A stretch of DNA of 64,000 nt from an uncultured Candidatus Saccharibacteria bacterium (GCA_964368785.1 CAYJCW010000003.1:71704-135703), one strand, 5' to 3'. Shown: positions 46 to 61,605, counted from the first letter of the stretch. Notes: generated from the letters alone by a model not told the origin. Numbers and translations are program-made.

Positions 46-97
46 ATAAGCCCTCGCACGGAGCAGGATGTTCCTACCGCGAGGACTTTCTTTTTTG
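46..97 (+). ncRNA. putative small hairpin RNA with U-tail (candidate RNA antitoxin)
   Basis: Starts 6 nt after -10; stems CCTCG/CGAGG, CGG/CCG and AGGA/TCCT, followed by a T-run; no ORF. Confidence 0.55.
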
Positions 98-136
98 TCA
101 TTCATATTTCTGACATCTGAGTAGCTTCATGTAAAC

Positions 137-166
137 AAAAAGCGGCACCATTACTGATGCCGCTTT
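137..166 (-). terminator. intrinsic terminator downstream of the 184-678 gene
   Basis: AAAGCGGCA (139-147) / TGCCGCTTT (158-166) stem with adjacent A/T run. Confidence 0.7.
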
Positions 167-183
167 CTGCTTTTGTCCGATCG

Positions 184-678
184 CTATCCTCCGATTCGTT
201 CTTTGACGTAGTCATGAAGTGATGTCTGTATTTCTTTAAACACAGCTCTTCCGTGACCACTGCCACCGATATGCCATCGCTTGATCTCTCGTATGTCGAA
301 TCCTTTCTCTCCACAATAGGCCTTGCCATCTTTGTAGTTGTAGATCGTTGCTATACCGTGTTCAGTTTCAACAATCCACTGTACATCCATCTTATTCTCA
401 GGCAGACGTGTGAATGGTTTGCCGTACACTGCCACGATATCTTCATAGCGTGCGAGGATGGAGCCGATTCCATGCGTACCGCTTATTACTTTCGCCATGT
501 CAGCATACTTTCGCTCATAGAGCCACTTTTTGTATGTACTGTAGTGCTCCATGATGTCCAAGATTACCTCACGGGAAAGATTGCTACACGCTTCGACTGC
601 TCGCACGTCGAACATATTCGTGACACCGCTGATGCGAACATCTTCGTATGCCTCGAAATCTTCTCGGGTTATGTCCAT
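184..678 (-). CDS. DUF5049-like N-terminal domain fused to an unknown domain, 164 aa
   Basis: SGVTNMFDV resembles the GxTNMFD motif of DUF5049 mobile-element proteins; AAGGAG RBS upstream. Confidence 0.6.
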   Translation of the reverse strand: MDITREDFEAYEDVRISGVTNMFDVRAVEACSNLSREVILDIMEHYSTYKKWLYERKYADMAKVISGTHGIGSILARYEDIVAVYGKPFTRLPENKMDVQWIVETEHGIATIYNYKDGKAYCGEKGFDIREIKRWHIGGSGHGRAVFKEIQTSLHDYVKERIGG

Positions 679-828
679 TGTTTATTACTCCTTTTCTAGA
701 GCATAGATAGCTCTCGTTTGTTAATAGTTCACCAATGCGAAGCGACAAATGTCGTCCGTAGAGGATGAGGCTATACTAATGAGGCTAAGAAGAAATGTGG
801 ATGAAAACGTCAATAATGTTTACAGCCG

Positions 829-859
829 AAAAGACAGCTCCGTATCTGGAGCTGTCTTT
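829..859 (-). terminator. intrinsic terminator after res
   Basis: AAAGACAGCTCC/GGAGCTGTCTTT 12-bp stem with 6-nt loop. Confidence 0.8.
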
Positions 860-883
860 GATTTTAGGCTATCTGCATGTGTA

Positions 884-3800
884 CTAGCTATTTACTGCCG
901 CGAGTAGATCGGCATAAGAACTTACTGCGCTATACTTCACTGTATCATCGCTAATCTTCTCAAAATGCCGCCTGGCACATTCGATCTTGGCTTTTTCGAC
1001 TTCACGAAGCTGCATCTCCATAGTATCGCCCTTTGTCTCCGCCACAAAGTAGATGTGTTTCACAGTACCTTCGCGGAACGTAATTGCCCAGTCGGGGTTA
1101 TATTTGCCCATCGGGGTGTTGATATAGAAGCCGCTTGGTAACTTGACATACAGCTCAACATTCTCAGCAATGTCCATCTCGCCAGCAAGATCACGCTCAA
1201 CACTCGAGTCGTAACGGACTTTATCAAAGAGGTGCTTCTTGGCATCAATCACGTTCCTGCCGTACTCACCGGAGATGGTTGGGTCGACAAAGATCTCCTC
1301 AGCATTCCACTCTTCGTCCAGCTTGTCATAGGTAATATGTTCAATGATCGTACTCGCTTTTTGCTCATCGATAAGTTTAATGGCTTCACGAATAAACTCT
1401 TCGGGGTTCACTCGAAACAGATTAAACACCACAGGCTCGATACGACCTAGGATTGTTGCCACTGTTCGCCTAGTTAGCTTCGTCATTGTGGCAATCTCGC
1501 CCACGAGGTCAAATGTCACGCCTCGTGATGCCACTTCTTCCAGTGTTACTTCACGCCCAAGAAGCTTTTTCATTTCTGGGCTGGTATCTTGTTTGGTAGA
1601 TTTTAGGTAGCCCTCGGTGATGACGACTTTGGTGGTTGCTACTCGTAGCTTCAAGTTCAGCGCCTTTATGCACGATTCTATCAGCTGCGATTCATCGAAC
1701 TGCACAGTATAGTAGGTTTTGGCGTTGATACGACTCCATAGCTCCTTAAACTCACGGCTGGCAAACTTCTCTTGGTCGAGGTTTAGCGTCGCTTTTGCGC
1801 GAGCATCGGACACCATCGGCTTCTTCTTCTTCTTCGGATCATAGACAGATTCTATCAGCAGCAGTGCGTTTTCAGCTTGTGTCGCTAGCTCGGGCGATAC
1901 AGCAGCGAGTACATCACCAATTTTCTCAGCACGAAGCTCTGGCGACCATTCGCTAAAGTCGTCGCTAATCTGGTCACCAGCCACGATACCACTACCGACA
2001 AGTCCAGCATAAATCAACGCAGCCTTGCTGATATCCAGCGCCACTTCTTCGCCAGCGTTATTCGTCCACACCTGCCCATTAAACAAATCTGGCGTAATCG
2101 CTTTCGGGCGATTCTTTATCACCTCGTAGAACTCATCCTGCAACGCCTTGGCAAATTCGTCGTAGCTTTCATTGGCAATCACCGTTAGTGCGTTTACTTC
2201 ATGCACGCCATGCGCGCCCAGCACATCAGCATCCATGCGCTCACCGTCACGATTCACGCTTAGTCGCAGTCCTCGGCCAATCTCTTGGCGCTTCTTGATG
2301 TCACCACTACTCATACGCAGCGTGCATATTTGGAATACATTCGGATTATCCCAACCTTCACGCAGTGCCGAGTGGCTAAAGACAAACCGCACCGGCTCTT
2401 CATGGCTCAGTAGTCGCTCCTTGTTCTTCATGATCAAGTCGTACGCGCCAGCATCAGACGATTCCGATTCGCCACGCTTTACTTCACTGTTTACCGCACG
2501 ACCTTTTTTATCTACCGAAAAGTACCCTGCATGAATACGATGCGCCTCATCACGTTGCAGGAACGTGCGGTATTCTTCGTCTTCACCGAATGGTAGCTGC
2601 TCAAAGAATCGGTCGAGTGCATTAGTATACTCTTCCTCAAACACCTTTGCATAGATGCCTTTTTGGTCATCGCTCTCGTAGTCTTTATACTTCGCCACTT
2701 CGTCGATAAAGAAGAGAGACAGCACCTTGATGCCTTTTTTGTATAGTTCACGTTCTTTTTCGAGGTGGCTCATAATTGTCTCGCGAATTTGAATGCGACG
2801 AATATCGCTCTCACTGGTATCACCAACCACTTCGCCAGGAGCAAGGCGCAAACCACCCGTAAACTCCACGTAGCCATCCCGTGCGTTAATATCGGAAATC
2901 ACGAAGCCATCACGGTACGCCTCGATCTCGCCAGAATGGTCATAGATATTATCGCCATGGGCAAATGTCTTGACTTTCTTGCTTATGCCGCTGCTGGTCG
3001 CAGTATTGTGCTCAAATACCACCGTTGCCGACGGGCTTTTGTTGGGATACACATTGATACGCTGTAGGTATAGGTAGCCGTTGGTTGCTGTTGTGCCGTG
3101 TATCGCGATGCCTTTGACGGTAATCTTTTTGACCAACTGACGCTGGTAGGCGTCGACAGCATCCAGTCGATACACCATGTTGAAGTTTTCTCGGTGCGTC
3201 GCAGAGTAGTTGACGTAAAATAGTGGATTAAACTTGCCGAGGCTGTCGCGCGTTACATTCTTACCACCAGTGACACCAATGACACTTTGTGGCTCGTCCA
3301 CAATCACGATAGGGTTCACAGCAGCAATCACGTCGATAGGGCGACGAGAGCGGAAGCTGTCGAGTTTCATATAGATACGCCGTGCGTCCTTGCCGCTGGC
3401 GTTAAACGCCTGCGTGTTGATAATCATGACGTTAATGCCAGGGTCATCGGCAAATTGCTCCAACTCGTTCAGTCGAGAGGAGTTGTAAACGAAGAATCGA
3501 CACGCCTTGCCGTATTCCTCGCGGAAATGATCGGCAGTCACCTGAAAGGTTTTTGCTACACCTTCGCGAATCGCCACACTCGGGACCACGATAATAAACT
3601 TACTCCAGCCATATCGAGCGTTCATCTCATACATCGTCTTGATATAGGTATAGGTTTTACCTGTACCTGTTTCCATCTCTACCGTAAATACCGGCTTTTC
3701 GACAGTTTGCTTGCTACCGTCGTCCCAGACTACTTTACTCGTCATCGTCTCGAGCCTGCTTGCTACAGGGGCAATGCCGTATTGTTTTTGCACAGCACGT

Positions 3801-4012
3801 AGGTTCTTTAGCAAATCTTCGGGACGCAAATGCACCTCTGGGTTTGCCCAGCCAGTTCGGGTCATGTCTATGGCAGTTGTCTGGTTGCTATTAGCAACAG
3901 CACCTTGATCTACAAGGAACTTGCGCGTCTCATTCGGCTGCCCCATAAACACATCGCACACTGCATTGGTAGCGTCTTCTTGGAACTTTTGATGTTTAAA
4001 ACGCAGTTTCAT
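884..4012 (-). CDS. res: Type III restriction enzyme, Res subunit
   Basis: VEMETGTGKT (motif I), IVDEPQS, SALREGWDNPNVFQIC, QEIGRGLRL; C-terminal YNPDWAI...VAETKG PD-(D/E)xK nuclease. Confidence 0.93.
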   Translation of the reverse strand: MKLRFKHQKFQEDATNAVCDVFMGQPNETRKFLVDQGAVANSNQTTAIDMTRTGWANPEVHLRPEDLLKNLRAVQKQYGIAPVASRLETMTSKVVWDDGSKQTVEKPVFTVEMETGTGKTYTYIKTMYEMNARYGWSKFIIVVPSVAIREGVAKTFQVTADHFREEYGKACRFFVYNSSRLNELEQFADDPGINVMIINTQAFNASGKDARRIYMKLDSFRSRRPIDVIAAVNPIVIVDEPQSVIGVTGGKNVTRDSLGKFNPLFYVNYSATHRENFNMVYRLDAVDAYQRQLVKKITVKGIAIHGTTATNGYLYLQRINVYPNKSPSATVVFEHNTATSSGISKKVKTFAHGDNIYDHSGEIEAYRDGFVISDINARDGYVEFTGGLRLAPGEVVGDTSESDIRRIQIRETIMSHLEKERELYKKGIKVLSLFFIDEVAKYKDYESDDQKGIYAKVFEEEYTNALDRFFEQLPFGEDEEYRTFLQRDEAHRIHAGYFSVDKKGRAVNSEVKRGESESSDAGAYDLIMKNKERLLSHEEPVRFVFSHSALREGWDNPNVFQICTLRMSSGDIKKRQEIGRGLRLSVNRDGERMDADVLGAHGVHEVNALTVIANESYDEFAKALQDEFYEVIKNRPKAITPDLFNGQVWTNNAGEEVALDISKAALIYAGLVGSGIVAGDQISDDFSEWSPELRAEKIGDVLAAVSPELATQAENALLLIESVYDPKKKKKPMVSDARAKATLNLDQEKFASREFKELWSRINAKTYYTVQFDESQLIESCIKALNLKLRVATTKVVITEGYLKSTKQDTSPEMKKLLGREVTLEEVASRGVTFDLVGEIATMTKLTRRTVATILGRIEPVVFNLFRVNPEEFIREAIKLIDEQKASTIIEHITYDKLDEEWNAEEIFVDPTISGEYGRNVIDAKKHLFDKVRYDSSVERDLAGEMDIAENVELYVKLPSGFYINTPMGKYNPDWAITFREGTVKHIYFVAETKGDTMEMQLREVEKAKIECARRHFEKISDDTVKYSAVSSYADLLAAVNS

Positions 4013-4016: not shown

Positions 4017-5915
4017 CTACACTACCTTCACCTTCGTATCAGGGCTAATGATGCGGAAATGCTCAGCGAGGTTGACCTTGGCTTGACTATCAGGGAATGA
4101 GGCTTCGCGGAATACGGCAGTTAGTGGGCGCATGGCGGCAATTGACTTGATGGTCGCTTCACTAATTTCGGGAGCAAAGCACGCCACGAGTCCCGACACT
4201 TCACCAAAGTAGTCGTATTTGTATACAACCCGGCCATCTAGCTGTACTGTTTCGAGTGGGCGATTGAGTTCAAGCGCAGACTGGGTTAATACGCCGAACA
4301 GGAGGTCGAGATCGCTACGATCTTCACGCACGTTATCTACCAAACTATCGAGCATCGATTGCTGCACGTCGGCAGCTGGGCGATAGACATCTTTGTGGTT
4401 GGTGTCGTCGATACGCAGGGCGCGGAAGCCATAGTCAACTTTGGCATCGGGGTGTTCGCTGGCAATCTTGTCGCCAGCCCGACGGATGCGCTCACGAGAG
4501 ATTTCGGGGATGGTTTTGTAGCCAGCTTTGAATGCTTCTGACTTTTCGTCGGTTTCTTCGGGCAGCTGCACCATGATCCATTTGCGGTTGCCGCCGTCTT
4601 CAACATTGAGTTGCATGACAGCGTGGGCGGTGGTGGCGGAGCCGGAGAAGAAGTCGAGCGTGATATAGTTATCTGTATCGAGCATTCTCATCATCTTAGA
4701 AATCATCTCGACCGGCTTCGGGAAGTCAAAAAGCTCAGAATTACCGAACAAATTCTTGGCTACAGTGCGTGCATTTTGATAATTTAGCTCTTTCTCATCC
4801 CAAACACTTTTAACCTTGGATAGTTTCTGAGTTCCATCAGTACTTTCTAGAGGGTCTATTCTGTATACATCGTATTCTTTCTTGCCATCTCTGGTGATTT
4901 CTTTTGCCACAAGCTCAGTGATTCGAGCGGACGATGTATCTTTACCCCAAGTCCATCGGCTTTCTTCTCCAGTTGGTCGCTTAGGTAGGACTTCAATCGT
5001 ATGGCTTTCGTCTTGCTCGATACTAACAGATAAATCTAATGGATTCACAAAAAATGAGAAATACATGTTCGGCCTATCTGAACGCTTCCAGTCACCGCCT
5101 CGTTTTCTCAACCCAAGCAATCTAGCTTTTCTACCGTCTGCTGTCGTATAATTGAACTCTGATTCGTCCTCTCGAGCAAGTCCGTTTAAGGACATCACAC
5201 CTTCCGCAGTCCTTGTGTAGCATAAAACATATTCGTGAACGCTTGATATGCCATAAGGTTCCTGCGAGCCACGAGGATTACTTATCGGAATAATTTGTCC
5301 TACATAATTAGATTCACTAAATACTTCGTCACATAGCTTCTTGAGATTTGCTTGCTCATCTTCTCCGATACTGATAAATATCACGCCATCTTCACTCAAA
5401 AGGTTCCGCGCTAGCTTGAGCCGTGGGTACATCATGCTTAGCCAGTCGCTGTGGTAGCGGCCGTTGCTTTTTTCGTTCTTTTTGAACTGAATATTGCCGT
5501 CTTCGTCACGGTAGTCGGTGTCGTCGTCGTACTGTTCGGTCGTCGCCTTGAAGTTGTCGTGGTACACAAAGTCTTTGCCGGTGTTGTATGGCGGGTCGAT
5601 GTAAATCATCTTGACCTTGCCGAGGTAGCTTTCTTGCAAAAGCTTGAGTGCGTCGAGGTTGTCGCCTTCGATAAAGAGGTTTTCGGTGGTATCCCAACTT
5701 TTGCTAGCATCGACATCAGGACGGAGGGTTTTGTTGATCGGTGCGCCAGCTTCGATGATGCTTTTGCGTTTGCCGACCCAAGTGAAGTCATACGCCTCAT
5801 CGTGGTCGTCGAGCTTATCTAGCGCCTCACCGAGACTCTCGAAGAATTCACGGCTTCCACGCCAGTCTACTTTGTCTAAATCTACCCGTTCTATGCCACT
5901 GCCGTCGCTCATCAA
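4017..5915 (-). CDS. mod: Type III R-M N6-adenine methyltransferase, Mod subunit
   Basis: FIEGDNLDALKLL, IYIDPPYNTG, DFFSGSATTAHAV; directly upstream of res. Confidence 0.93.
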   Translation of the reverse strand: MMSDGSGIERVDLDKVDWRGSREFFESLGEALDKLDDHDEAYDFTWVGKRKSIIEAGAPINKTLRPDVDASKSWDTTENLFIEGDNLDALKLLQESYLGKVKMIYIDPPYNTGKDFVYHDNFKATTEQYDDDTDYRDEDGNIQFKKNEKSNGRYHSDWLSMMYPRLKLARNLLSEDGVIFISIGEDEQANLKKLCDEVFSESNYVGQIIPISNPRGSQEPYGISSVHEYVLCYTRTAEGVMSLNGLAREDESEFNYTTADGRKARLLGLRKRGGDWKRSDRPNMYFSFFVNPLDLSVSIEQDESHTIEVLPKRPTGEESRWTWGKDTSSARITELVAKEITRDGKKEYDVYRIDPLESTDGTQKLSKVKSVWDEKELNYQNARTVAKNLFGNSELFDFPKPVEMISKMMRMLDTDNYITLDFFSGSATTAHAVMQLNVEDGGNRKWIMVQLPEETDEKSEAFKAGYKTIPEISRERIRRAGDKIASEHPDAKVDYGFRALRIDDTNHKDVYRPAADVQQSMLDSLVDNVREDRSDLDLLFGVLTQSALELNRPLETVQLDGRVVYKYDYFGEVSGLVACFAPEISEATIKSIAAMRPLTAVFREASFPDSQAKVNLAEHFRIISPDTKVKVV

Positions 5916-5975: not shown

Positions 5976-8900
5976 TTACGATTCTTCCTCTGTATACAGT
6001 GCGTTAAAGTTGGCCCAGTACGACTTTTCTGCATTGCTCTGTCGTCCATTTGCGAAAGCCGGAAGCGCATTGAAGATATCCTGCTTAGCTTGTGTATTGC
6101 TCCAGCTTTGCATCCTAGATAGCAGGTCGTCAAAATCCTTACGGTGATGACGATAATTAGGCTGAGCCGTTTGGAATGAATTGACAACAATCTGTATCAT
6201 CTGGGCATCCTGTGTCTCTGTAAGCAAACTAAACAGGAGATAGATATAGTCATTCTTCGGAGTGTCCTGAAATAGTGGGTAATAGTCGTTAATTACCTGG
6301 AAGGCAATACGATGCGCGGATGAGATAGATCGGCCAGGTTCTCTCAGCCACGCCAGTAGCTCAGTTGCTATGCGACGCCTGTCAGTATCTTCTAGGAACT
6401 GTAACTGAACGAGGAAGTTATAGCTAATGTCAGACTGCTCAGGATCGCCACTCATAATAAGAGACTTGATTTGCTCGAGTGCAGTCTTTAATTCTGCCGT
6501 ATCCGACTTAAGTAGTCTTGATGCAATGAAATCAAAGTACTTCGATTTAAATGTATAGCTGTTCGCTCCAGCTTTGTCGAGCAACTTGGCAAGCGTCTCC
6601 TTGCGAGCAGGCACCTTACTGAGAGTAGCTATGAAGTCAATGTCAAAATAATTATTTACTGGCACCCGAGATATCAGGTCATCAATGATAGCCTTCTTCT
6701 CTTCATCTGCGGCATTGTCATAAATATAGCGCAGAACAGTCGCGGACACAGAAAGCTGCGGTAGCACCGTCGGAAGTATAAGCCTGATAAATCGTTCTCT
6801 CGTAGGCTCATTCCAATAGTCAAGCGGTCGCTGAATCTGCGAGAGATCTGTAAAACTTTGGAAATACGACTTTATACTATCACGAACTGCCTGCTTGTCG
6901 GTCTCGTTTACATATTGGCGAATCCAATAGAGTGCTACTATTTGATCTGAGCGCTCCTCCCATTGTGAGGTGTACGGAATGGATTTAATAATATCGTTTG
7001 CTATCTCCGTTAGGGGTGCAGCTGCGCTCTTCATATCATTTGAAAAAGTTTTAGTAAGTGGCGTAATCGCTTCAACTATCTTTATTTTATTGTCACCATA
7101 TCTCGATGATGTAGCAGTATCCTGCTTGAGTAGTTCCGATATTCTGGAAACGATATCGATAACGAGACCGTGGTCTGAAACATATTCTTTGAAGGCTGCC
7201 ATGGTAGCAAGCTTTGTAGCAAGATTGTCAAAGTCAAACGATTTTATATAATCAGTAACCAGCTTCTCGGTAATGAAAGACTCCTGGCTCTTGTTGGTTG
7301 TGAATATCGCAAGCGTCTCTTCGTCCAATCCATACTTAGTCTCAAGGATTGAGCGGATATTCGTCATTTGCTGCTTGTTTAATACCGAGGGATTATCTTT
7401 GAAATTAGCAATAACACCACGCCTCAGAGTTGTAATAGTATTGCCAGTGTCTAGTGCTGAGATATACCGTTCGACAATATTACTCCTAAGCGAGCGATTG
7501 AGGTTTTTATTTGCTAATAGGCTAAATATATGGTCGAGCGTAAAGCCCTCATATTTCTGCCACAGTTCTGTATCGATTGTTTTTGCGACTTCGTTGACGT
7601 ACCGCCTACTGCTGATGTTGATACCGAGGCTGGCAATCACCTCAAGTTGCGTGTTTACGACATTGATTAAGATATTTTCTTGACCCGTATATTTCATCAC
7701 CAAGTCTGTCATAAACTCGACAAGCTTATCATGAGCCTCATTGTTCGCGGCTTCAATAGCCTCCGTGACATTTGCGGCAACGAACGCATTCTTTATATCG
7801 TTCGCGTTACTCAAGCCTCGCGAATCAGCTGGGTCTTTGAAATAAATGAAAGGCTCCGCATCATCAACAGTAATACGGCTTGTCTTCCGCATGAAATTCG
7901 TGAAGTCAGTAGCCCCACCAGTCTCACTGCCACCATTAGTAATATTTTCTGGACTGTGCCACGTCTCTTTGAGAGATTCGTATGCCTTAGGGAACTTCTG
8001 CCGGATGATAAGTACCTTTGCAAGATATGCTATGTTGCTATTTATAATATCCTTTACACCCGTGCCTTGGGTACTGATGACCATGGCTATAAGGTTATTT
8101 ATAAACTGAATTATCTCACGTGGATTTCTGGAAAAGGCAGCATTGATGACAAGAATGACATCTTCGTCATTGAGCTGCTTGCCAATCTCGCCAGTTTCCT
8201 TAAGTAAGGACTTAGTGTATTCCTCAAGGTCAGTATTGATGAAGTCTGGTATCCAGATAATGAGATTAAATATCTTCCTTAGATATTCTGCGGCACCGAA
8301 AGAATCGTCTTGGTCGTGACGCACTCCGTAAAAGTATTTTTCGACCTGAACCTCGATTGCGGTCGGATCACAAGGAACCAAGAATACGATATCACCGCTA
8401 CTACCGCTGTACATAAATGTCTTGATTGTAGAGAGCATGGTTATCGCAACGTCACCCTGTACACGATCTATATTGTCAAAGACAATAACAAGCTTCTTGT
8501 CTACGCGGCTAAGTATGTCGATAAATTTCTGCTCAAACTGCTCGGGGGAGTTTAACCGATCTTCTTGGCTAATCTCGGTTACAAGTTCTATACGTTGCTC
8601 TTGCTTGGCGAAGAAAGACTCGGTCACTATTTTTAGGACACTTTCCAGTATCGGCTTACCGAATGCTCCAAGGAAGGCAATACTCGTCACGATAGTAGTC
8701 AGCTGGAGTATAAACTGCGACGCAACATTATTAGGATAAAAAGTTACTAAAACGGATGCGCCAATAAGCAACAGGACAGTCACTATAAGTGGTAGATACT
8801 TCTTTAGATATGACAGTACCTTTGCTTTAGTTGTGAGTTCAGTGGTAGATTTTTCCTTCTTGGCTACCGACACGGTTTTAGAAGAATACAAGTTAACTAA

Positions 8901-9233
8901 AATGTCATCTGGTAGGTCGTATTTTTGACTTCGTAGATATTCAACAAGTTTGATAAGAAATGTCCGACGCAGCGTGTCTTCCTGGTACTTCCACGCGTCA
9001 AATATAAAAACAGGCATATCGAGATCGGGGTCGTTCTGCACCATTTCGACAACCGTGCTTTTACCCGTACCCCATGCGCCGAACAAACCGATAGTATGAG
9101 GTGATGTGCTATCTTTTAAGATCTTCTTCAAAGCTGGTGCAATCGTAGCGTGGTAGAAGCCCTCATAACTAACCTCGGACTTTTTCCGAGGCTCATCTTT
9201 CAAAAAGATAAACTCAGGTGGTTTCTTTTTCAT
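5976..9233 (-). CDS. KAP-family P-loop NTPase with two TM helices and a long helical C-terminus, 1085 aa
   Basis: TIGLFGAWGTGKS Walker A, FDAWKY, two hydrophobic helices, LVIVFDNIDR Walker B, YLRKIF and NPREI motifs. Confidence 0.85.
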   Translation of the reverse strand: MKKKPPEFIFLKDEPRKKSEVSYEGFYHATIAPALKKILKDSTSPHTIGLFGAWGTGKSTVVEMVQNDPDLDMPVFIFDAWKYQEDTLRRTFLIKLVEYLRSQKYDLPDDILVNLYSSKTVSVAKKEKSTTELTTKAKVLSYLKKYLPLIVTVLLLIGASVLVTFYPNNVASQFILQLTTIVTSIAFLGAFGKPILESVLKIVTESFFAKQEQRIELVTEISQEDRLNSPEQFEQKFIDILSRVDKKLVIVFDNIDRVQGDVAITMLSTIKTFMYSGSSGDIVFLVPCDPTAIEVQVEKYFYGVRHDQDDSFGAAEYLRKIFNLIIWIPDFINTDLEEYTKSLLKETGEIGKQLNDEDVILVINAAFSRNPREIIQFINNLIAMVISTQGTGVKDIINSNIAYLAKVLIIRQKFPKAYESLKETWHSPENITNGGSETGGATDFTNFMRKTSRITVDDAEPFIYFKDPADSRGLSNANDIKNAFVAANVTEAIEAANNEAHDKLVEFMTDLVMKYTGQENILINVVNTQLEVIASLGINISSRRYVNEVAKTIDTELWQKYEGFTLDHIFSLLANKNLNRSLRSNIVERYISALDTGNTITTLRRGVIANFKDNPSVLNKQQMTNIRSILETKYGLDEETLAIFTTNKSQESFITEKLVTDYIKSFDFDNLATKLATMAAFKEYVSDHGLVIDIVSRISELLKQDTATSSRYGDNKIKIVEAITPLTKTFSNDMKSAAAPLTEIANDIIKSIPYTSQWEERSDQIVALYWIRQYVNETDKQAVRDSIKSYFQSFTDLSQIQRPLDYWNEPTRERFIRLILPTVLPQLSVSATVLRYIYDNAADEEKKAIIDDLISRVPVNNYFDIDFIATLSKVPARKETLAKLLDKAGANSYTFKSKYFDFIASRLLKSDTAELKTALEQIKSLIMSGDPEQSDISYNFLVQLQFLEDTDRRRIATELLAWLREPGRSISSAHRIAFQVINDYYPLFQDTPKNDYIYLLFSLLTETQDAQMIQIVVNSFQTAQPNYRHHRKDFDDLLSRMQSWSNTQAKQDIFNALPAFANGRQSNAEKSYWANFNALYTEEES

Positions 9234-9294: not shown

Positions 9295-9939
9295 CTATTT
9301 CAGCAGTTTCTCAAGAGTGTACCGCTCTCGTGCCAGCTCCTGTTTTCTCGCCACACTCGGTTCGGCTGCAATCTTCTTATTAATATTTTCGATTTGCTTT
9401 TGAATCTTTTCTCGTTGCTTGGTGTCCTGTACCGCTTCGGCAATCGGTTTGGTAGGGTTAAAAGTTGGGGCGATCTGCTGTAAGAAGCTGACGTAGATAC
9501 CCTTGACAGATCTGCCCGATAGGGTGAGAGCGGGTGTGCTCCACGACGTTTCATAATACTGGATGATTTTACTTTTCTGAGCGTCTTTATAGCTAGGTTC
9601 TTTGTATGATATGGCGTACTTCGTCTCGCGATTCGAACGGACGATGCCGAACAGGATTGGTCGGGGAATAATACTATCGATCGTTTCGAGGACTTTTTTA
9701 CTTAGCTCTCTGCCTTTGAGTGATATTTCAATAACGTCCAGCTCGTCGTATGTGCCGCCCGATATATTCATAGTTCGCGGTGCAATCACCGCACGGAGTG
9801 TGACTTTTTCTATCTCATCGACAAAGAGCTGTCGCAAGCTATAGTCAACCGCACCAACCTTGTAGAACTTCTCCTTAGGGATGCTCACGTTCGTCAAAGC
9901 GGAGTCAGGGAGGTTAACTATGTTCACTATGGTCACCAT
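9295..9939 (-). CDS. DUF4391-family protein
   Basis: Size about 214 aa, IPKEKFY-like N-terminus, coiled-coil C-terminus (IENINKKIAAEPSVARKQEL); typical position between SNF2 helicase and mod. Confidence 0.75.
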   Translation of the reverse strand: MVTIVNIVNLPDSALTNVSIPKEKFYKVGAVDYSLRQLFVDEIEKVTLRAVIAPRTMNISGGTYDELDVIEISLKGRELSKKVLETIDSIIPRPILFGIVRSNRETKYAISYKEPSYKDAQKSKIIQYYETSWSTPALTLSGRSVKGIYVSFLQQIAPTFNPTKPIAEAVQDTKQREKIQKQIENINKKIAAEPSVARKQELARERYTLEKLLK

Positions 9940-11695
9940 ATTTCTCTCGTATTTTTTGACTGATCATTGCTCGTGGAATCTCGTACAGCTTTACGATCTC
10001 ACTCCGTAACCACTTCGTCCGTGCTTCGAGCGACTCAAGATTCCAGGTTTCACAGTTATCGGCAATCCATCTAGTTGTGTAGTTTTCTGCGCCACCGATA
10101 CCATCACGCTTGTTGAGGTTACCAGCAAAGGTAAGATTCTTGTTTGGCGTAGGTGGATAGCCAACAATAGCGATATTGGCAAGTTTGCCATAAAACCGCT
10201 GATTAATTGTTTCCCAGTCTTCGCCTAGCTCTTCCTTCCATGCATCATCAAGCCTAAAGCCGTAAATTGCTTTTGGCATGATGTGAGCAACCTTTTGATG
10301 GAGAGAGCGAGTGTTTCCATCGTGTGCAATATCGAGTTCACATAACAAGACCCTTGCCTTGCTATCGGAAATGTCTTCATTAGTAATAGCAAATTCAATC
10401 CTCTCATCAGTAACATTGCGAGATTTACTTGGGTCGCCCGCACCTTCCATGTACCAGAGATAGGCATCGTAAAAGGAGCTCATCTCGTAGTCTTTGTAGC
10501 ACTTGTATACTGCATTTGCCGTACTGTTAATGAGCTTGAAGCCTCCAGTGCCGCCAATCTCATCACGCCTCTGCTGTTTTCCAACCACCGTTAGTATATT
10601 GCGGAAATCGTTCCTCGTCAGCTCGCCTTGCTTGTAATACTCCAATAGTTGGATAAAGAATGACAGATGTGACACTGCGACACTGTGCGTAGACGATTCG
10701 CTCTTACCTTGCATGTCTTCGTCGAACACGCTCAACATCTTGTGCTTGGTGATATCATCTTTCCATAGTAGATAGATATAGTCGTCTAGAATTGACGTGA
10801 TGTCCGACCATACTGCACGCAACTGGTCTAGTGACTGGTCTGGCGTGACACTGCTGTAATATTCCTTGAACTTCTCGTAGGTATTCTTTTCGTTGATAAC
10901 TTTGTCGTTGTACTTAATGGTGAGGAACACTCGGAAGAACCCGGTGATAAGTTGCGCACCAACACCAACAAATTCGCCACTTCTTGTTAGTGACTTTTCA
11001 ATCTTGAGCCAGTAGTCGTGATACACCATATTGCGTGCTTCTTCGGAATTGAGCATCAGAGCGAAGTTGCGTATCTTATCTCCATCGGTGAGCGGCTCAC
11101 CTGTAGCGTTGATATTCTCGAACACTACTTGTGGATTGTCGTCTTCTGGCGTGAGCAGAATTGATATCATGTCGATACGTTCGAGCACATCAAGATAGGG
11201 GTCGATTTTATCGAGGTTGCTTATCTTACCTACGAAGAAGGTATACATATCAAAGAGCTTCGACTGCTCGTCAACTGGTACAGTTTTACGTCGTAATATT
11301 CTATCAAAGGTCTCTCTGTCAGATGTTGCTCCGCGCAAGATAACCTTTAGCTCGCCATCATCCTCGTTATACAAAAATGTTTTACCTAGCTCTTCAGCAG
11401 TGTACTTCCACGATTTGCGAGAATCGTCGAGTAAGGCATGGTAGCAAGCGGTAATGAATAATAGTGTCGTAGTGAGTCGTTGCTGACCGTCAATTACTAC
11501 ACGATTTATATCGTCCTGAAAGAATACGATGCTGCCGAAGTAATGGCGCTTCGAATTTGATACTGTATCGTGGATACTCTCCCAGAAAGCCAGACCCTGC
11601 ATAGGCTTCCATGCGTACGGTCGCTGAAAGTCTGGAATCTTGAAGAATTGCGACTCTGCGATGAAGCTATGGAGATTGGTCTGCACTGCTCGCAT
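9914..11695 (-). CDS. DUF262 + DUF1524-like protein (GmrSD/SspE-like)
   Basis: IPDFQRPYAW, VIDGQQRLTT, FENINATGEPLT; C-terminal HIMP...ANI region resembles a diverged DUF1524 HNH domain. Confidence 0.85.
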   Translation of the reverse strand: MRAVQTNLHSFIAESQFFKIPDFQRPYAWKPMQGLAFWESIHDTVSNSKRHYFGSIVFFQDDINRVVIDGQQRLTTTLLFITACYHALLDDSRKSWKYTAEELGKTFLYNEDDGELKVILRGATSDRETFDRILRRKTVPVDEQSKLFDMYTFFVGKISNLDKIDPYLDVLERIDMISILLTPEDDNPQVVFENINATGEPLTDGDKIRNFALMLNSEEARNMVYHDYWLKIEKSLTRSGEFVGVGAQLITGFFRVFLTIKYNDKVINEKNTYEKFKEYYSSVTPDQSLDQLRAVWSDITSILDDYIYLLWKDDITKHKMLSVFDEDMQGKSESSTHSVAVSHLSFFIQLLEYYKQGELTRNDFRNILTVVGKQQRRDEIGGTGGFKLINSTANAVYKCYKDYEMSSFYDAYLWYMEGAGDPSKSRNVTDERIEFAITNEDISDSKARVLLCELDIAHDGNTRSLHQKVAHIMPKAIYGFRLDDAWKEELGEDWETINQRFYGKLANIAIVGYPPTPNKNLTFAGNLNKRDGIGGAENYTTRWIADNCETWNLESLEARTKWLRSEIVKLYEIPRAMISQKIREKYGDHSEHS

Positions 11696-14700: not shown

Positions 14701-14970
14701 ACCATACAAAGAGCGTTCGGCATTGAGACGTGGGATATAGAACTCCCGAGACTCTCGAGGTGCACGCTCGTTTGTAAATACTTCACCCGTAAACAGAAAA
14801 TTCAATTCGTCGACCTGCTCTAGCTCTCGCTTAAGCAACTGGTAAGCATAGATAGAAAAGCTGGCAGCAGCAATATCTACCTTACTGCCGGCACGAATTG
14901 TCATTTTAAGATCATCAATAACTCTGTTTGAAATATTATCGAAGAAGACTGGGTTGTTAGTTTGGTTCAT
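11704..14970 (-). CDS. SNF2-family helicase with N-terminal PLD-like domain, type III R-M associated
   Basis: LADSVGLGKT, VIDESHNFRN, LSATPVNN, GTDCISEGQNLQDC, QRFGRVDRIGS; N-terminal AASFSIYAY...FRSN. Confidence 0.9.
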   Translation of the reverse strand: MNQTNNPVFFDNISNRVIDDLKMTIRAGSKVDIAAASFSIYAYQLLKRELEQVDELNFLFTGEVFTNERAPRESREFYIPRLNAERSLYGTDFEIKLRNELNQQAIAKECAEWIRRKVKFRSNVSGEQMMPFMSVQNSEQDAAYSPLMNFTTADLGADRGHNAYSTTTKVYSPQAQHFIDTFESVWNDDEKIADVTESVLENITAAYKENSPELIYFAALYNIFSEFLEDLNADYLPNEATGFKNSVIWSKLYDFQKDAVIGCISKLEKHNGCILADSVGLGKTFSALGVIKYYESRNKNVLVLVPKRLKDNWNTFKGNYKNNPVAEDRLRYDVLFHTDMSRERGDSNGIDLQNLNWGNYDLVVIDESHNFRNGELSTHRKEDDEYENRYQKLMNRIIRDGVKTKVLMLSATPVNNRFTDLRNQLMLAAEGDSTHLDSSLGTENPVEKIFRDASSAFKAWNELPPESRTTSALLDMLHFDFFELLDSVTIARSRKHIERYYSLSDVGKFPTRLKPISERPELTDIEGVTFDEIFNRIDSLNMDVYTPMRYVFPSKLGKYVDLESAKGRSWANRETGRNVLMITNMLKRLESSVYAFRKTSERMYDLIDGITDDIDRFEQGRATSTTVNQSNINTIEYDEDPEEAEWTVGKDLKIDFADIDLVSWRAKLEEDKATLNELLAMITPIADEHDLKLQRLLEIIRDKIHNPLNGNNKKVLVFTAFADTADYLYGELASKIKNEFGLDSAVVTGTRNPAMTIPTTRTVKPDFNTILTLFSPKSKGRDMLFDENPGEIDILFGTDCISEGQNLQDCDYLINYDIHWNPVRIIQRFGRVDRIGSTNNVIQLTNFWPNISLDEYINLKARVEGRMRMVNLTATGNDNPIDEADNAELEYRKSQLEKIQNEVVDLEDMSGGVSIMDLGLNEFHLDLQELLGKYGEADALPFGIHAVARASEDTPPGVIFVLKNVNQGVNIDRQNRLHPFYLVYIADDGRVAVNHLQSKELLNKLRHLGKGFDTPDSDMVAKFNAETNSGKDMSRYTDLLTNAIQSIITVKNEKDIDSIFRIGETTVLSNDVSGLDDFELINFLVIRD

Positions 14971-15019
14971 CTGTGCATATTATACCCTGTTTTACAGATA
15001 AAAATAATCCGACGAACAA

Positions 15020-45440: not shown

Positions 45441-45454
45441 GTATACTAAGAAGA

Positions 45455-54442: not shown

Positions 54443-56887
54443 TTATTGTTTCCCCGCCTCTTTTTGCTGCGTATACCCACATCCATACCAAAAGTTGCTA
54501 CACCCATAAAATTCACCATTCGTACCACTGCGCATAATAAGGTATCCGCTATGGCAGGCTGGACAACGTGTCTGGCTCTCCTTGTTTTCGGGCTCAAGCG
54601 GGTCTAGGTTGAGTTCATCGACAAATGGTGATGGATTGTGCTCTGTGCAAATAATCGTCGTCGAAAGTTTTGCCCGGGTAAGCGCTACGTAAAAAAGACG
54701 GCGCTCTTCTGCGTTTGGGTACTCGTCTTTATGAGCAAGCAATAGGTGAAGGACAGGATCATCTTCTCGCATGGCTGGTATGCCCCTTGTACCACCGTTG
54801 CCGTTAAGGATAAACGCATAATCACAGGTTAACCCTTTCGAGGCATGCATGGTCATGAACTCGAGCGTCAGGCGAAAGCCGGTTCGTGTATCGGTCCATT
54901 CAACCATCGTGCCCATTTCATTAAGGGCACGGAATTGCAGACGAGGGTCTTGGTAGCCAAGAAGACGCTGAATATCATGCTTATAGCGGCCAATGAGAAA
55001 AATTGTCCTATGTCGTAGACCGTCTGTTCCTACAGTATCAATAAGTCGCTGGAGTTCCTCGCCAAGCGCGGTCGCATCATTATCCAAACCTGCCGTGCGG
55101 TTAACGGCTAATTTTGTCGTGGCAGGAAGTGTACTGTAGGGATTTTTTTGCACCTGCGAAGAGTTCTTCGTAATAAATGTGGTTGTCGCGCCAAGGAGCG
55201 GATTGTTAAAGCGGTGCGTTTGCTCAATAACGCTATGGCGAGTTGTGCGGGCGAATCGTTTCTCAAAATCGTTCAGCAATGTTAAATCGCTCCCGGCAAA
55301 GCGGAAAATAGATTGCCAGTCATCACCAACGGCAAATAATTTTGAGCGAGGGTTGCGGTCGAGAAGTGCTCTTAGGAGCCGGTATCGCGCGCCGGAAAGA
55401 TCTTGTACTTCATCAACCAAGATATAGTCATACTCCATTACGCCGGCTGGAAGCAACGGAAGCGTCTGCGCTGCGGTAACGATCATATCCGAAAAGTCGA
55501 TTGCATCAGCTTCTTGAAGTGAGGTCTCGTATAGTTCATAGATTTCTTCAAACAAAGCAAGAAAAGCATTCGTTCTGGCGCGCTGATAAACGTTTGGCAG
55601 TTCATGAAGACGCTTTCGAATGGTGGCTAGGCTAAATTCACTGGTTTTTAATAATCCAAGAAAAGAAATGAGGAGTGTATTAAATGCTGCCACCTCTGTG
55701 CTGTATGATTGATGAATAAGGGCGGCAATTTCTGACTCTTGTCGACGAATAATATGCACACCTTGAGCCTTCAGGCGTTTTTCGAGATTTTGAAGAACGG
55801 TTCCCTCTTGAAATTCATAACTAAACGTTTCAATAAGGCGCGTGCCGCCCTGACTATGATACTCGCGGTTCCATTTCATTTTACGGCGATAGTATTTGTA
55901 GTCTATATCAGGACGCGTTTTTCCTTGACGATTAATACCCTGATGCTCAAGATAGACAGGTTCTTTATATTGAGTAATAGTGAAATCGGGTTTGTAATTA
56001 CTATTTCCCGGAAAAGGCTTTTCATATTCGTAAGGAATAGAATTAATAAATAAGAAATTTGCAATAATTTGCTCTTCTTTTGAACGCACCCTCTCGCCGT
56101 GGTAGGTTTGCTTGTCTTGAGAGTAAGTACTTTTGTTCATCGACACGGGTTTTAGCGTATGAGTTTGAAAGACCCGGTTTCTTTGGACAAGCTCCTCAAG
56201 GGTCTTTACTTCAATGGGCGGTGTAGGCATCGAGAAGTAATTGAGAATATAGTCATTATAACGCCGCGCAAATGTCTCGCTATTTTCTATGCGGTCTTTA
56301 ATAATCTCGGTAAGCATAGCTTGCTGTTGAGTTTGGCTGACAACTTTGGCTTTCTTACCTAAAATGGTATTTCCAAGCGCGTGAAAAGTCTTGCCATCGA
56401 CAGCAATACCTAGCCTCTTAAGCCGCTCGGCAAGTTCATCAGCGCTTGCTTTGGTGAACGAAATAGTTAAAATACGCGCTGGGTTAATATGGAGTTCCTC
56501 CACAAGGTATTGGCACTTGGCAAGCAGGCTCAGTGTTTTACCACTCCCGGCTGCTGCCATAACGAGCTGCGCATCTTCAGTGGCTACGACGGCTTCGATC
56601 TGTTGGGCATCAAGGGGGCGCCCCTCTATAATAAAAGGCCGTTGCTGGGCAGCGGCAATTACCTTTTGGTTATGAGTCTGGCGCGTAGATTCGCTCCCAA
56701 GACGGTATGCCGCTCGCCTCGCCGCAGCGGTTGCTATAAACGAAAGGGGATGATGAAAAAATGCGCGTAAAGAGTGCGCTGCGGTGGGCTGAGGCGAGCG
56801 TGCCTCGGCAAGTTCTGAGAAACTAATAAATCGCTCGGTAGCATAAAGCTTTTGGAGTGCATCGGTGGGAGGGGGTGTAAGGGGCAT
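54443..56887 (-). CDS. UvrD/helicase IV-like SF1 helicase with nuclease-like insert and C-terminal topoisomerase-type Zn ribbon
   Basis: AAAGSGKT, ILVDEVQD, VGDDWQSIFRF, HASKGL, EERRLFYVALTRAK; YEYE...YKPDF...EHQG insert; CPAC...CSNF..C. Confidence 0.88.
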   Translation of the reverse strand: MPLTPPPTDALQKLYATERFISFSELAEARSPQPTAAHSLRAFFHHPLSFIATAAARRAAYRLGSESTRQTHNQKVIAAAQQRPFIIEGRPLDAQQIEAVVATEDAQLVMAAAGSGKTLSLLAKCQYLVEELHINPARILTISFTKASADELAERLKRLGIAVDGKTFHALGNTILGKKAKVVSQTQQQAMLTEIIKDRIENSETFARRYNDYILNYFSMPTPPIEVKTLEELVQRNRVFQTHTLKPVSMNKSTYSQDKQTYHGERVRSKEEQIIANFLFINSIPYEYEKPFPGNSNYKPDFTITQYKEPVYLEHQGINRQGKTRPDIDYKYYRRKMKWNREYHSQGGTRLIETFSYEFQEGTVLQNLEKRLKAQGVHIIRRQESEIAALIHQSYSTEVAAFNTLLISFLGLLKTSEFSLATIRKRLHELPNVYQRARTNAFLALFEEIYELYETSLQEADAIDFSDMIVTAAQTLPLLPAGVMEYDYILVDEVQDLSGARYRLLRALLDRNPRSKLFAVGDDWQSIFRFAGSDLTLLNDFEKRFARTTRHSVIEQTHRFNNPLLGATTTFITKNSSQVQKNPYSTLPATTKLAVNRTAGLDNDATALGEELQRLIDTVGTDGLRHRTIFLIGRYKHDIQRLLGYQDPRLQFRALNEMGTMVEWTDTRTGFRLTLEFMTMHASKGLTCDYAFILNGNGGTRGIPAMREDDPVLHLLLAHKDEYPNAEERRLFYVALTRAKLSTTIICTEHNPSPFVDELNLDPLEPENKESQTRCPACHSGYLIMRSGTNGEFYGCSNFWYGCGYTQQKEAGKQ

Positions 56888-60388: not shown

Positions 60389-60967
60389 ATGGCAGAAGTA
60401 CAACGAAACAACGCTCGTGGCGGAAACAATCGTGGCCGCCGCGACCAAGCTCCCGAGGAGCCAAAACAATTTGAAGAACTCGTTATCAACATTGACCGCG
60501 TGTCACGTGTGGTAAAAGGTGGGCGCCGTTTCCGTTTCAAGGCACTCGTGGTTGTGGGTGACCGCAAAAACCGCGTTGGTGTTGGTGTTGCAAAGGGTGC
60601 CGATGTACAGGTGGCTGTACAAAAAGCAACTGATGTAGCAAAGAAAAACCTTATCACCATTCCGATTGTTAACGAAACCATTCCTCATGAAAACGAAGTG
60701 AAGTTCTCTGGTGCACAAGTGCTCCTTAAGCCAGCTGCCCCAGGTACCGGTATCATTGCCGGTGGTGTAGTTCGTTCAATCATTGGGGTAACCGGTATCC
60801 GCAACTTGCTTTCAAAGTCACTTAACTCTACCAATAAGGTAAATATCGCGTACGCTACTATTGAAGCGCTTCGCGGCCTTGTACCAAAAGAAGAGTGGCT
60901 GAACGCTTCACCTCGCAAAACAGCTAAGACCGTAGCGAAGAAAGCGGATGCGAAGGAGGCCAAATAA
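60389..60967 (+). CDS. rpsE: 30S ribosomal protein S5
   Basis: RVSRVVKGGRRFRF, PAAPGTGIIAGG. Confidence 0.98.
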   Translation: MAEVQRNNARGGNNRGRRDQAPEEPKQFEELVINIDRVSRVVKGGRRFRFKALVVVGDRKNRVGVGVAKGADVQVAVQKATDVAKKNLITIPIVNETIPHENEVKFSGAQVLLKPAAPGTGIIAGGVVRSIIGVTGIRNLLSKSLNSTNKVNIAYATIEALRGLVPKEEWLNASPRKTAKTVAKKADAKEAK

Positions 60968-61449
60968 TGACTAAGTACAACGAACTCCTTGCTGGAGCAA
61001 ACAAAGACAAGAAGCGTGTTGGCCGTGGTATTTCAGCGGGCGGTGGTAAGACTGCGGGCCGTGGTACCAAGGGCCAAAATGCACGTACGGGTAAAAAGCT
61101 TCGCGCAACCTTCCAGGGTGGCCAGCGCACACTTGTGCGGGCAGTGCCTAAGGCGCGCGGTTTCAAGAGCCTCCGCACTCCAGCGCAGGTTGTCTACCTC
61201 GATACGCTTAACAGCTTTGAAGGAAAGGCGGTTGATAACGAAGCGCTCTTTCAGCAGGGGTACATCTCAACTCCCTTCCACACGGTAAAGGTTATTACTC
61301 GTGGTGAACTTTCTAAGGCGCTTACTGTAAAAGTTGCTGGTGCAAGTAAATCTTCGCAGGAAGCTATCGTGAAGGCTGGTGGTACCTTTGAAAAGACTGC
61401 CGTGCCTCTAAAGAAGAGTACGAAGGCTGCGGAAGCGGCTGATAAGTAG
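60967..61449 (+). CDS. rplO: 50S ribosomal protein L15 (no rpmD gene before it)
   Basis: RVGRGISAGGGKTAGRGTKGQ, FQGGQ. Confidence 0.97.
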   Translation: MTKYNELLAGANKDKKRVGRGISAGGGKTAGRGTKGQNARTGKKLRATFQGGQRTLVRAVPKARGFKSLRTPAQVVYLDTLNSFEGKAVDNEALFQQGYISTPFHTVKVITRGELSKALTVKVAGASKSSQEAIVKAGGTFEKTAVPLKKSTKAAEAADK

Positions 61450-61456
61450 AGCTTTC

Positions 61457-61497
61457 TTAAATTTGAAGAGCCCCAAGGTGGGGCTCTTCAAATTTAA
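61457..61497. terminator. perfect 18-bp inverted repeat after rplO
   Basis: TTAAATTTGAAGAGCCCC-AAGGT-GGGGCTCTTCAAATTTAA. Confidence 0.8.
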
Positions 61498-61515
61498 TGA
61501 ATCAGAGGGCGATAA

Positions 61516-61544
61516 TTGACAGTATTTAGCGCCTGTGCTACAAT
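61516..61544 (+). promoter_or_regulatory. near-consensus promoter (TTGACA-17-TACAAT, extended -10) firing into the 3' end of the NYN gene
   Basis: TTGACA at 61516-21, TG at 61536-37, TACAAT at 61539-44. Confidence 0.85.
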
Positions 61545-61550
61545 GAAGGC

Positions 61551-61605
61551 ATAAAGACGAAGGCGATCCGAACGGTTAATTACCTAAGGAGGACCTTCTT
61601 TTTTT
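61551..61605 (+). ncRNA. putative sRNA antisense to the NYN gene 3' end
   Basis: Starts ATAAAGACG; GAAGG/CCTTC closing stem followed by T7; no ORF. Confidence 0.6.

Follow-up and report, generated by a model that had tools for sequence, protein, structure and literature searches.

The window examined here is a stretch of 64,000 nt from an uncultured Candidatus Saccharibacteria bacterium (GCA_964368785.1 CAYJCW010000003.1:71704-135703); coordinates given without a locus name refer to it. An initial annotation of this window pointed out four small RNA (sRNA) candidates, here termed S1-S4, as neighbours of nuclease-like genes with a common 5′ signature (a -10 box, 6 nt and ATAA(A)G). Our reading of the window sequence confirmed all four at the coordinates below, each closed by a hairpin and a U-tail as had been claimed, and their conserved promoters, covarying hairpins and U-tails make them look like independent sRNA genes. 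On the evidence of the sequences, S1-S4 are three sRNA families, each of 45-55 nt, rather than one, and they are very probably real, dedicated sRNA genes.

S1 is an RNA of ~50 nt (46-~97, plus strand) that begins with AUAAG (AUAAGCCC at 46) 6 nt after its -10 box and contains an outer stem, the invariant ACGGAGCAGGAUGUUCCUACC and a U6 tail. Its promoter (11-39, plus strand), which is kept in the related loci L153-L160, comprises TTGACA (11-16), a 17-nt spacer and the extended -10 element TGa-TAGTAT (31-39). S2 (20640-20689, minus strand) has AUAAGACG at 20687 and the loop GUUACUGUACUGUAUCAAC, with the hairpin and U-tail extending to ~20640. The S2 promoter (20697-20725, minus strand) consists of TTGACA (20725-20720, within I-D-I codons), 17 nt and TAACAT (20702-20697), a layout that recurs in loci L002, L003, L014 and L016. 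S3 (20573-20637 with its -10 element, minus strand) lies behind the extended -10 element TGc-TATACT (20637-20629; hexamer 20634-20629), from which 6 nt separate an sRNA at 20622-20573 with AUAAAGACG at 20622, the loop GAUACUGAACUGAAUCAAG and an end at ~20573. S4 is an RNA of ~55 nt (61551-61606, plus strand) with AUAAAGACG at 61551, a covarying stem and a U7 tail; its core, CCGAACGGUUAAUUACCUAAGG, occupies 61568-61589. The S4 promoter (61516-61544, plus strand) has TTGACA at 61516, 17 nt and TGc-TACAAT (61539-61544), ends 6 nt ahead of the RNA and is kept in nearly all members of the S4 family. The proposed arrangement of a -10 box and 6 nt therefore describes S1, S3 and S4; in S2, the box located 17 nt from the -35 element is TAACAT, not CATAAT, and its gap to AUAAG is 9 nt, as in its relatives, so that 6 nt is not a property of the S2/S3 family. 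The predicted folding energies of S1, S2 and S3 are -17.9, -13.4 and -16.4 kcal/mol, with z between -3.0 and -4.9 against shuffles (S1 z -3.0); the fold of S4 (-14.3 kcal/mol, z -1.6) is weak taken alone. Searches of the entire window with Rfam at the gathering score gave zero matches, those with Rfam 15 at E up to 10 around S1, S2/S3 and S4 gave chance-level matches only, and the window contains no tRNA or tmRNA genes.

S1 and S2 follow genes of the CdiA_C family (PF18451). The gene ahead of S2 and S3 (20712-21101, minus strand) encodes a standalone protein of 129 aa, a PD-(D/E)xK nuclease resembling CdiA-CT(Bp1026b), with a match to PF18451 at E 2.9e-18 and 66.2 bits (gathering cut-off 26.6). 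The gene ahead of S1 is represented by its last 10 codons and TGA stop (1-33, plus strand), its body lying beyond the window; it was retrieved from an independent assembly (L001) that shares the first gene of the window. There, L001:5602-6006 (minus strand) encodes a PD-(D/E)xK protein of 134 aa that belongs to PF18451 and shares 40% identity with the 129-aa protein, and thus the adjacency to a nuclease gene holds for S1 as well. An AF2 model of the 129-aa protein (pLDDT 91.6) was compared with the PDB using Foldseek, and the sole significant match was 4g6v_A (E 1.6e-6, TM 0.66, over the whole length). 4g6v_A is the CdiA-CT(II) toxin of B. pseudomallei 1026b, a Mg-dependent tRNase that cuts the acceptor stem of tRNA-Ala and is blocked by the CdiI protein, which plugs its active site (PMC9086364). 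SitA3, the other characterised PF18451 member, is likewise a tRNase (PMC9990079), and tRNase activity and toxicity within PF18451 are known only for these two proteins (PMC9990079, PMC9086364). Five residues, H21, E22, D49, E58 and K60, are invariant in 38 sequences, with identity between subfamilies of only 27-35%; E22, D49, E58 and K60 correspond to the conserved catalytic E/D/E/K of the PD-(D/E)xK core. The CdiA_C proteins found here are bare toxin domains of 125-147 aa without a delivery region. They match no defence-system model of PADLOC, in which the NYN protein discussed below has weak partial matches only. The CdiA_C mRNAs look leaderless (loci L002-L021; 21102-21125, minus strand, in the window), with an extended -10 element, ~7 nt and ATG, and without a Shine-Dalgarno sequence. 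At the other end of the gene, the I-D-I codons (ATT GAC ATA) near the C-terminus hold the -35 element TTGACA of the sRNA in both CdiA_C genes of the window, and in the S1 type the TGA stop of the toxin gene is also the TG of the extended -10 element.

The distribution of the S2/S3 family was followed by scanning one genome per GTDB species with the CdiA_C alignment, which yielded 23 loci, mostly from Saccharimonadales, with some labelled Kaiserbacteria or Nomurabacteria and one from a Coriobacteriales metagenome-assembled genome (MAG). A hairpin of the S2/S3 type, behind a -10 box that is often TGn-extended, stands 20-45 nt past the stop codon in 21 of the 23 loci; the other two are divergent paralogs with other hairpins. 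The alignment of 28 such sequences (A2) has a 9-10-bp outer stem (AAAGNCGNG.../...CNCGNCUUU) and, past an internal loop, an inner stem of 3 bp and a loop that is nearly invariant, A/G-CUG-W-A-Y-UG-W-A/C. Compensatory changes are present in 10 of its 13 pairs, and 89.6% of cells are paired, compared with 30-62% in slid controls. A covariance model of the family (R1) gives S2 70.5 bits (E 8.8e-15) and S3 65.8 bits. The loop type tracks the toxin clade: the S2 type follows the clade of the window's own toxin (L002, L003, L014, L016), and the S3 type is the first RNA after toxins of a different CdiA_C clade (L004, L006, L010, L012, L015). Because the S3 type elsewhere follows this other clade, S3 probably represents an orphaned second copy, one that has its own -10 box. 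Tandem second copies also occur in L008, L009, L016 and L020, those of L008, L009 and L016 without their own promoter. A conserved block, GGCTCAC..ATAGAGGAAGTTATAACC..AAGCATGACCTAACAG..TGGTATAGT, is located ~100 nt ahead of the CdiA_C start in L003, L014, L019, L020 and L021 and is repeated after the RNA in the tandem modules of L014 and L020; possible identities are a promoter or operator common to these genes and the terminus of a mobile unit.

The S1 family, a sister of the S2/S3 family, was assembled from homologs of the L001 paralog, with five queries leading to eight loci (L153-L160). In all eight, TTGACA falls within the I-D-I codons and the -10 box is located at the stop codon or overlaps it; in seven, that stop is a TGA abutting the -10 box. 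The RNA consensus is (A)AGCC-NN-CGC ACGGAGCAG[G/U]AUG[U/C]UCCUACC GCG-NN-GGCUU-U(n); in the alignment of seven sequences (A4), 96% of cells are paired and 5 pairs have compensatory changes. Further divergent paralogs (L013:960-1367, L022, L023) carry their own hairpins, with promoters resembling those above.

Taken across both types, a promoter and hairpin unit was found downstream of all 34 CdiA_C genes examined (26 open reading frames (ORFs) and 8 S1-type loci). No conserved protein neighbour emerged from an all-against-all BLAST of ORFs of at least 60 aa within 1.5 kb of 25 CdiA_C loci, and the genes flanking the two CdiA_C modules of the window are mutually unrelated; the lack of a conserved protein neighbour fits an RNA as the partner or antitoxin. 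The RNA and its promoter are retained where the toxin gene has decayed (broken in L011, truncated in L024), and the second RNA and promoter of L014 are preceded only by a 20-nt remnant of a gene end. Among the CdiA_C genes examined there is no intact toxin gene without an RNA, while RNAs without an intact toxin gene exist. This asymmetry would be expected of an antidote and not of a cofactor, and is the one that toxin-antidote pairs display. The linkage of S1-S3 to CdiA_C genes and of S4 to the NYN genes described below holds over dozens to more than 100 unrelated genomic contexts. The suggested strategy of the candidate phyla radiation (CPR) is not exclusive to CPR, as the CdiA_C type also occurs outside Patescibacteria, in Actinomycetota: in L017, the Coriobacteriales MAG, with an S2/S3-type RNA, and in P0348, a protein of Adlercreutzia. 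Actinomycetota include known hosts of Saccharibacteria, and transfer of the CdiA_C and RNA module between host and epibiont is conceivable. When viral sequences were scanned for CdiA_C-type RNA loops, two patterns gave zero matches and one gave 4 chance matches in coding DNA; another loop pattern found one real S1-type module, in which the toxin gene is split.

S4 accompanies a LabA/DUF88-type NYN gene of 180 aa (61576-62118, minus strand; PF01936, E 1.9e-16; 4076 homologs) that is inserted backwards between rplO and secY. The described adjacency to the 3′ ends of nuclease genes is correct for S1-S3 at CdiA_C genes and for S4 at the NYN gene, except that S4 is convergent to and overlaps its neighbour rather than simply lying beside it. 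Bases 61576-61606 of S4 are antisense to the NYN coding sequence, such that the core, the 3′ stem arm and the U-tract of S4 are the complement of the NYN stop and last 10 codons (...KKRRSSLGN, stop). NYN homologs that are 68-80% identical and lie in unrelated contexts (glycosyltransferases, beside DUF2726, tandem NYN pairs) have a near-identical element on the opposite strand, consisting of a TGn-extended -10 box, 6 nt and AU[A/U]AAGACGAAGGCGAU-CCGAACGG[U/C]UAAUUACCUAAGG-AGGACCUUCUUUUUUU. In L025, where the NYN gene stops at another position, compensatory changes in the stem preserve the hairpin, which indicates that the constraint acts on the RNA and not on the protein tail. L161, with a more distant NYN homolog, has the core variant CCAAACGGCUAACUACCUAAGG. 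Between rplO and the S4 promoter, the perfect palindromic hairpin AAATTTGAAGAGCCCCAAGGTGGGGCTCTTCAAATTT (61450-61500, plus strand), which lacks a U-run, probably terminates or delimits the ribosomal-protein operon that the NYN and RNA insertion interrupts before secY.

A scan of metagenome contigs for the exact 22-nt core gave at least 120 matches. Among the matches listed, nearly all have TTGACA, 17 nt and TGnTAnnAT, the 5′ end is AUYMMGACGA, and A is at exactly +7 in 100%. In the 104 unique sequences listed, stem positions 3-10 pair in 76-98%, with GC/AU swaps, and position 2 is mostly A·G. A convergent NYN gene abuts or overlaps the RNA 3′-to-3′ in 87 of the 117 testable sites among the matches listed (74%, a value for this sample). 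Core positions 9/15 in the same 104 sequences are C/A (42), U/A (35) or U/G (27) and never C/G, and so do not form a Watson-Crick pair. In L083, a 284-aa KilA-N-like ORF convergent to an NYN-type RNA ends in the NYN-like tail ...ENGSLGN, its last codons and stop being the complement of the RNA core; the NYN-type RNA gene seems to supply whichever gene abuts it with a C-terminus and a stop codon. L124:4330-4545 has an array-like arrangement of three tandem NYN-type hairpins (two with core variants) behind a single promoter, followed by a fourth, different hairpin with a terminator, on a 12-kb contig without an NYN gene. L032:8640-8700 (minus strand; the same contig as L128) has an NYN-type core with a different closing stem and its own promoter, and neither an NYN gene nor a U-tail. 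This contig is a genuine phage fragment with terminase, portal, protease/scaffold, endolysin, Erf and exonuclease genes. An NYN-type RNA carried alone by a phage recalls phage-encoded antitoxin mimics, and the L032 hairpin could, by analogy, be such a mimic. Two other features of S4 were considered and set aside: a small ORF (a Shine-Dalgarno-like sequence, then GTG), which is not conserved in relatives (L026, for example, has no GTG), and a resemblance of the core or its complement to the 16S 3′ end (CCUCCUUA...GGAUC), which is suggestive only.

The proposed 5′ signature does not unite the four RNAs. With R1, S4 reaches 11.5 bits (E 3.4) and S1 is absent from the list; the families have unrelated loops and cores, and only A at +7 is common. 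Ordinary terminators of the type AAAAGAC...GUCUUUU (826-866, 45408-45444, 15019-15072, 134-174) score 10-14 bits with R1, as does the hairpin ATAAAGACG...CGTCTTTTTT at 54690-54734 (minus strand). The latter was rejected as an RNA gene, being in-frame within an 814-aa helicase gene (motif ...AEERRLFYVALTRA), and is an example of coding DNA producing the motif by chance. In 58 unrelated strong promoters of the same loci, A is the commonest base at +7 (53%), T is at +6 in 48%, and nothing further is conserved. The objection that the signature reflects a preference at transcription starts applies to A at +7, the usual start position. In all families, AAAG/GACG at the 5′ end pairs with the CGUC/CUUU that opens the tail. 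Since AAAG pairs with the CUUU of the terminator, the 5′ motif is not independent of the stem and U-tail, and since the RNA is a terminator hairpin from its own first base, it must start with A and continue with purines. The shared ATAA(A)G is, as far as we read it from sequence, convergent architecture and neither homology nor a common tag. A scripted scan of the window for the composite pattern (a -10-like box, N6, ATAA(A)G, a stable hairpin and a T-run) found 5 sites, compared with a mean of 0.03 and a maximum of 1 in 100 dinucleotide shuffles. The fifth site (19907-19850, minus strand), overlooked in the initial annotation, belongs to an element at 19850-19919 in which TAGATT is followed after 6 nt by AUAAGAGGAG..., and which has a U-run as well as a hairpin (-16.3 kcal/mol, z -3.9). 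It directly follows an unannotated 114-aa ORF (19973-20317) and may be merely the terminator of that gene.

The best overall explanation of these observations, to which we would give an even chance, is that the three sRNA families are each dedicated to a nuclease gene and form RNA-antidote modules. For the CdiA_C RNAs the case for an antitoxin role is finely balanced; for the NYN RNA the same role is distinctly more tentative. Each RNA would be a single hairpin that doubles as its own intrinsic terminator, transcribed from A at +7, and its purine-rich 5′ arm (AAAG-GACG) would pair with the beginning of the U-tail as well as with a 3′ arm rich in pyrimidines. The CdiA_C toxin (~130 aa, a predicted toxic RNase) would be made from the apparently leaderless mRNA. 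As there is no terminator between the toxin gene and the RNA, the toxin mRNA would run into the hairpin and carry one copy at its 3′ end. The second promoter, with its -35 element in the last codons of the toxin, would yield extra free RNA, and because it adds RNA, the amount of RNA should always be at least that of the toxin message. The CdiA_C RNA would then bind the nuclease as a pseudo-substrate and inhibit it, in the manner of a type III antitoxin, and extra tandem copies such as S3 may act as orphan antidotes. S4, with its strong promoter, may restrain the NYN protein by antisense pairing at the 3′ end of its mRNA, by protein binding through the core, or both.

It is improbable that the hairpins do no more than serve the nuclease genes as intrinsic terminators (bidirectional in the case of S4), with accidental promoters and no separate RNA. 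In favour of this reading, these hairpins have to be where the toxin mRNA ends, the -35 elements of S1 and S2 are coding sequence (TTGACA from the I-D-I codons), generic terminators of the genome share the AAAGAC...GUCUUU build, and a comparable hairpin (ATAAAGACG...CGTCTTTTTT) has arisen by chance in the helicase gene. Terminator loops, however, are not normally invariant, whereas in these RNAs conservation is highest in the loops and cores and the stems covary, and the -10 boxes, often TGn-extended, stay at a fixed distance though the spacer diverges. Moreover, second copies (S3, L157) and orphans (L024, the second copy of L014) keep their own -10 box without an upstream gene, the U-tract of S4 is on the strand opposite to the NYN gene, whose own strand has a poor U-run, and the three tandem hairpins of L124 share one promoter with no gene to terminate. 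It is very unlikely that the four belong to one RNA family or carry a functional 5′ tag for a common factor: AUAAAGACG is identical in S3 and S4, and GACG near the 5′ end is conserved in both the CdiA_C-type and NYN-type families, but beyond the R1 scores and the unrelated loops and cores, the 5′ consensus of the NYN type (AUYMMGACGA) differs from that of S1 ((A)AGCC), the CdiA_C-type 5′ end, (A/U)AAAG(A/G)(C/U)G, lies at a variable 6-9 nt from the -10 box, and the bases of the motif are paired to the 3′ arm and tail. Modules found in many unrelated contexts, and a conserved upstream block at some CdiA_C loci, would also suit sites acting at the DNA level, such as mobile-element ends or recombination or operator sites; this we consider highly unlikely, as compensatory changes and G-U tolerance are strand-specific RNA signatures, the promoter and U-tail build is directional, and no flanking inverted or direct repeats were noticed.

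A different possibility is that the RNAs are real and serve as cofactors, guides, activators or substrates instead of antidotes, for instance by targeting or licensing cleavage or by being processed themselves, the NYN type perhaps as a housekeeping regulator with no more than a tendency to lie near NYN genes. We regard this as unlikely, though less so than the preceding readings. Strict pairing of protein and RNA with co-diversification would fit any obligate RNA-protein partnership, and the S4 core region contains UAAGGAG(G), a candidate Shine-Dalgarno-like decoy. Several points lie on the same side and weigh against the antidote reading. Among the NYN-type RNAs listed, 30 of the 117 testable (26%) have no adjacent NYN gene and adjoin varied, unrelated neighbours (a KilA-N-like protein, an IS200-type transposase, NUDIX, HAD, a RelE-like protein), suggesting that this RNA may have an independent cellular role. 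Moreover, the direction from NYN gene to RNA was followed in the window and in four further homolog sets, none below 68% identity, and a scan that requires the exact core overstates the invariance of that core. We know of no LabA-type NYN proteins that are established toxins. For the CdiA_C type, the toxin transcript would end at the same hairpin, which may be a terminator with a loop conserved for another reason, and mimicry of a tRNA T-loop or anticodon loop by the S2/S3 loop (CUGAA, CUGUA, GAAUC) is a conjecture. Known type III antitoxins are upstream of the toxin, form processed repeats and have an RNase partner of the ToxN fold, and the modules described here have none of these features. 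In favour of antidotes, the closest relatives of the toxin domain attack tRNA unaided and have a dedicated partner that neutralises them (PMC9086364), the RNAs outlive the toxin gene with no intact toxin gene seen without an RNA, the modules are mobile and located at the edges of a defence island, and a phage with an NYN-type RNA alone is more easily read as carrying a neutraliser.

In the window, the two CdiA_C and RNA modules bracket a defence island of ~20 kb (1-~21.1 kb) in inverted orientation, both facing inward. Between them lie genes for a type III restriction-modification system (res, 884-4012; methylase, 4017-5915), a KAP NTPase (5976-9233), DUF4391 (9295-9939), GmrSD (9914-11695), an SNF2 helicase (11704-14970), DUF2779 (15928-17421) and nSTAND3+Mrr (17442-19736).

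If RNA-antidote modules are indeed what these loci encode, a broader picture can be proposed, which we offer as a speculation that may well not hold in full. Saccharibacteria, other Patescibacteria and at least one lineage of Actinomycetota would carry at least three families of two-gene modules of nuclease toxin and RNA antidote, built on two folds never linked to RNA antitoxins (a PD-(D/E)xK tRNase of the CdiA-CT type and an NYN RNase of the LabA type), with hairpins as pseudo-substrates, orphan and phage copies that cross-protect or serve as anti-defence, and modules that mark the edges of defence islands. In this same proposal, the promoter would be written into the last codons of the toxin, or the terminator would encode the C-terminus of the toxin. 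Should the RNAs neutralise the nucleases, RNA antitoxins would extend beyond the ToxN-type fold, and a toxin domain of contact-dependent inhibition (CDI) would have been re-used as an intracellular module in which an RNA replaces CdiI. The genome economy is also unusual, with a promoter in the last codons, a stop codon that is the TG of an extended -10 box and a terminator arm encoding a protein tail. The three sRNA families would be abundant and easily testable, in a group of phylum rank whose genomes are tiny and leave little room between genes, and their clean covariation makes covariance models ready for the annotation of CPR genomes. Literature searches on PF18451, on sRNAs and toxin-antitoxin (TA) systems of Saccharibacteria, on NYN with sRNA and on RNA antitoxins with CdiA-CT found no description of these RNAs. 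No sRNA of Saccharibacteria is known to have been validated, and a 2022 preprint on the TM7x transcriptome states this for TM7x.

Among known systems, the putative modules are closest in outline to type III TA systems (ToxIN, CptIN, TenpIN), judging from a nuclease toxin beside a conserved structured RNA that would be the antitoxin and, for CdiA_C, from the lack of a conserved protein partner. In type III systems the RNA can be tandemly repeated and in excess, and phages can carry antitoxin look-alikes. In contrast to the known examples, in which an array of short direct repeats lies upstream of the toxin gene and is co-transcribed with it across an intervening terminator, the RNAs described here are downstream (CdiA_C) or convergent (NYN) and have their own promoter, which for CdiA_C lies in the last codons of the toxin. 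They consist of 1-2 terminator-ended hairpin units rather than 2-5 processed repeats of 34-36 nt, and the toxins have a PD-(D/E)xK (CdiA_C) or NYN fold instead of the ToxN/AbiQ fold. The CdiA_C proteins resemble CdiA-CT(II)Bp1026b of the CdiA-CT(II)Bp1026b/CdiI pair (PDB 4G6V; PF18451) and SitA3 in their PF18451 match, fold and catalytic E/D/E/K. However, unlike CDI and other polymorphic toxins, they are standalone proteins of ~130 aa and not the tip of a CdiA, Rhs or SitA delivery protein, and no CdiI-like or other conserved protein gene adjoins them (25 loci), a conserved RNA being in the place of the immunity gene.

In the type I TA systems txpA/RatA and bsrG/SR4 of B. subtilis, an antisense RNA overlaps the 3′ end of the toxin mRNA, and the convergent S4 and NYN genes, with a 3′ overlap of ~30 nt or more, are similarly arranged. 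They differ in that the NYN-domain protein is soluble and of 180 aa and not a small hydrophobic membrane peptide, that the S4 core is invariant, structured and conserved far beyond the need of antisense pairing, and that S4-type RNAs also occur away from NYN genes and as tandem arrays. DapZ and MicL are 3′UTR-derived, Hfq-dependent regulators of enterobacteria that act in trans by base pairing. As in these, the sRNA promoter is inside the upstream coding sequence and the terminator of the parent mRNA is shared; unlike them, the RNAs described here have little beyond a hairpin with a conserved loop, which co-diversifies with the upstream protein. Gene-associated hairpin motifs known from comparative genomics, such as the DUF2693 RNA of Rfam, are also short conserved hairpins tied to one protein family, whose function is unknown or that of a nuclease, although the DUF2693 RNA, the only such motif listed, scores 11 bits against a gathering score of 81. 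Thus, by comparison with these systems, we infer that the modules work like RNA-antitoxin systems and yet belong with neither the known type III systems, from which they depart in position, repeats and fold, nor the type I systems, whose toxin is a peptide.

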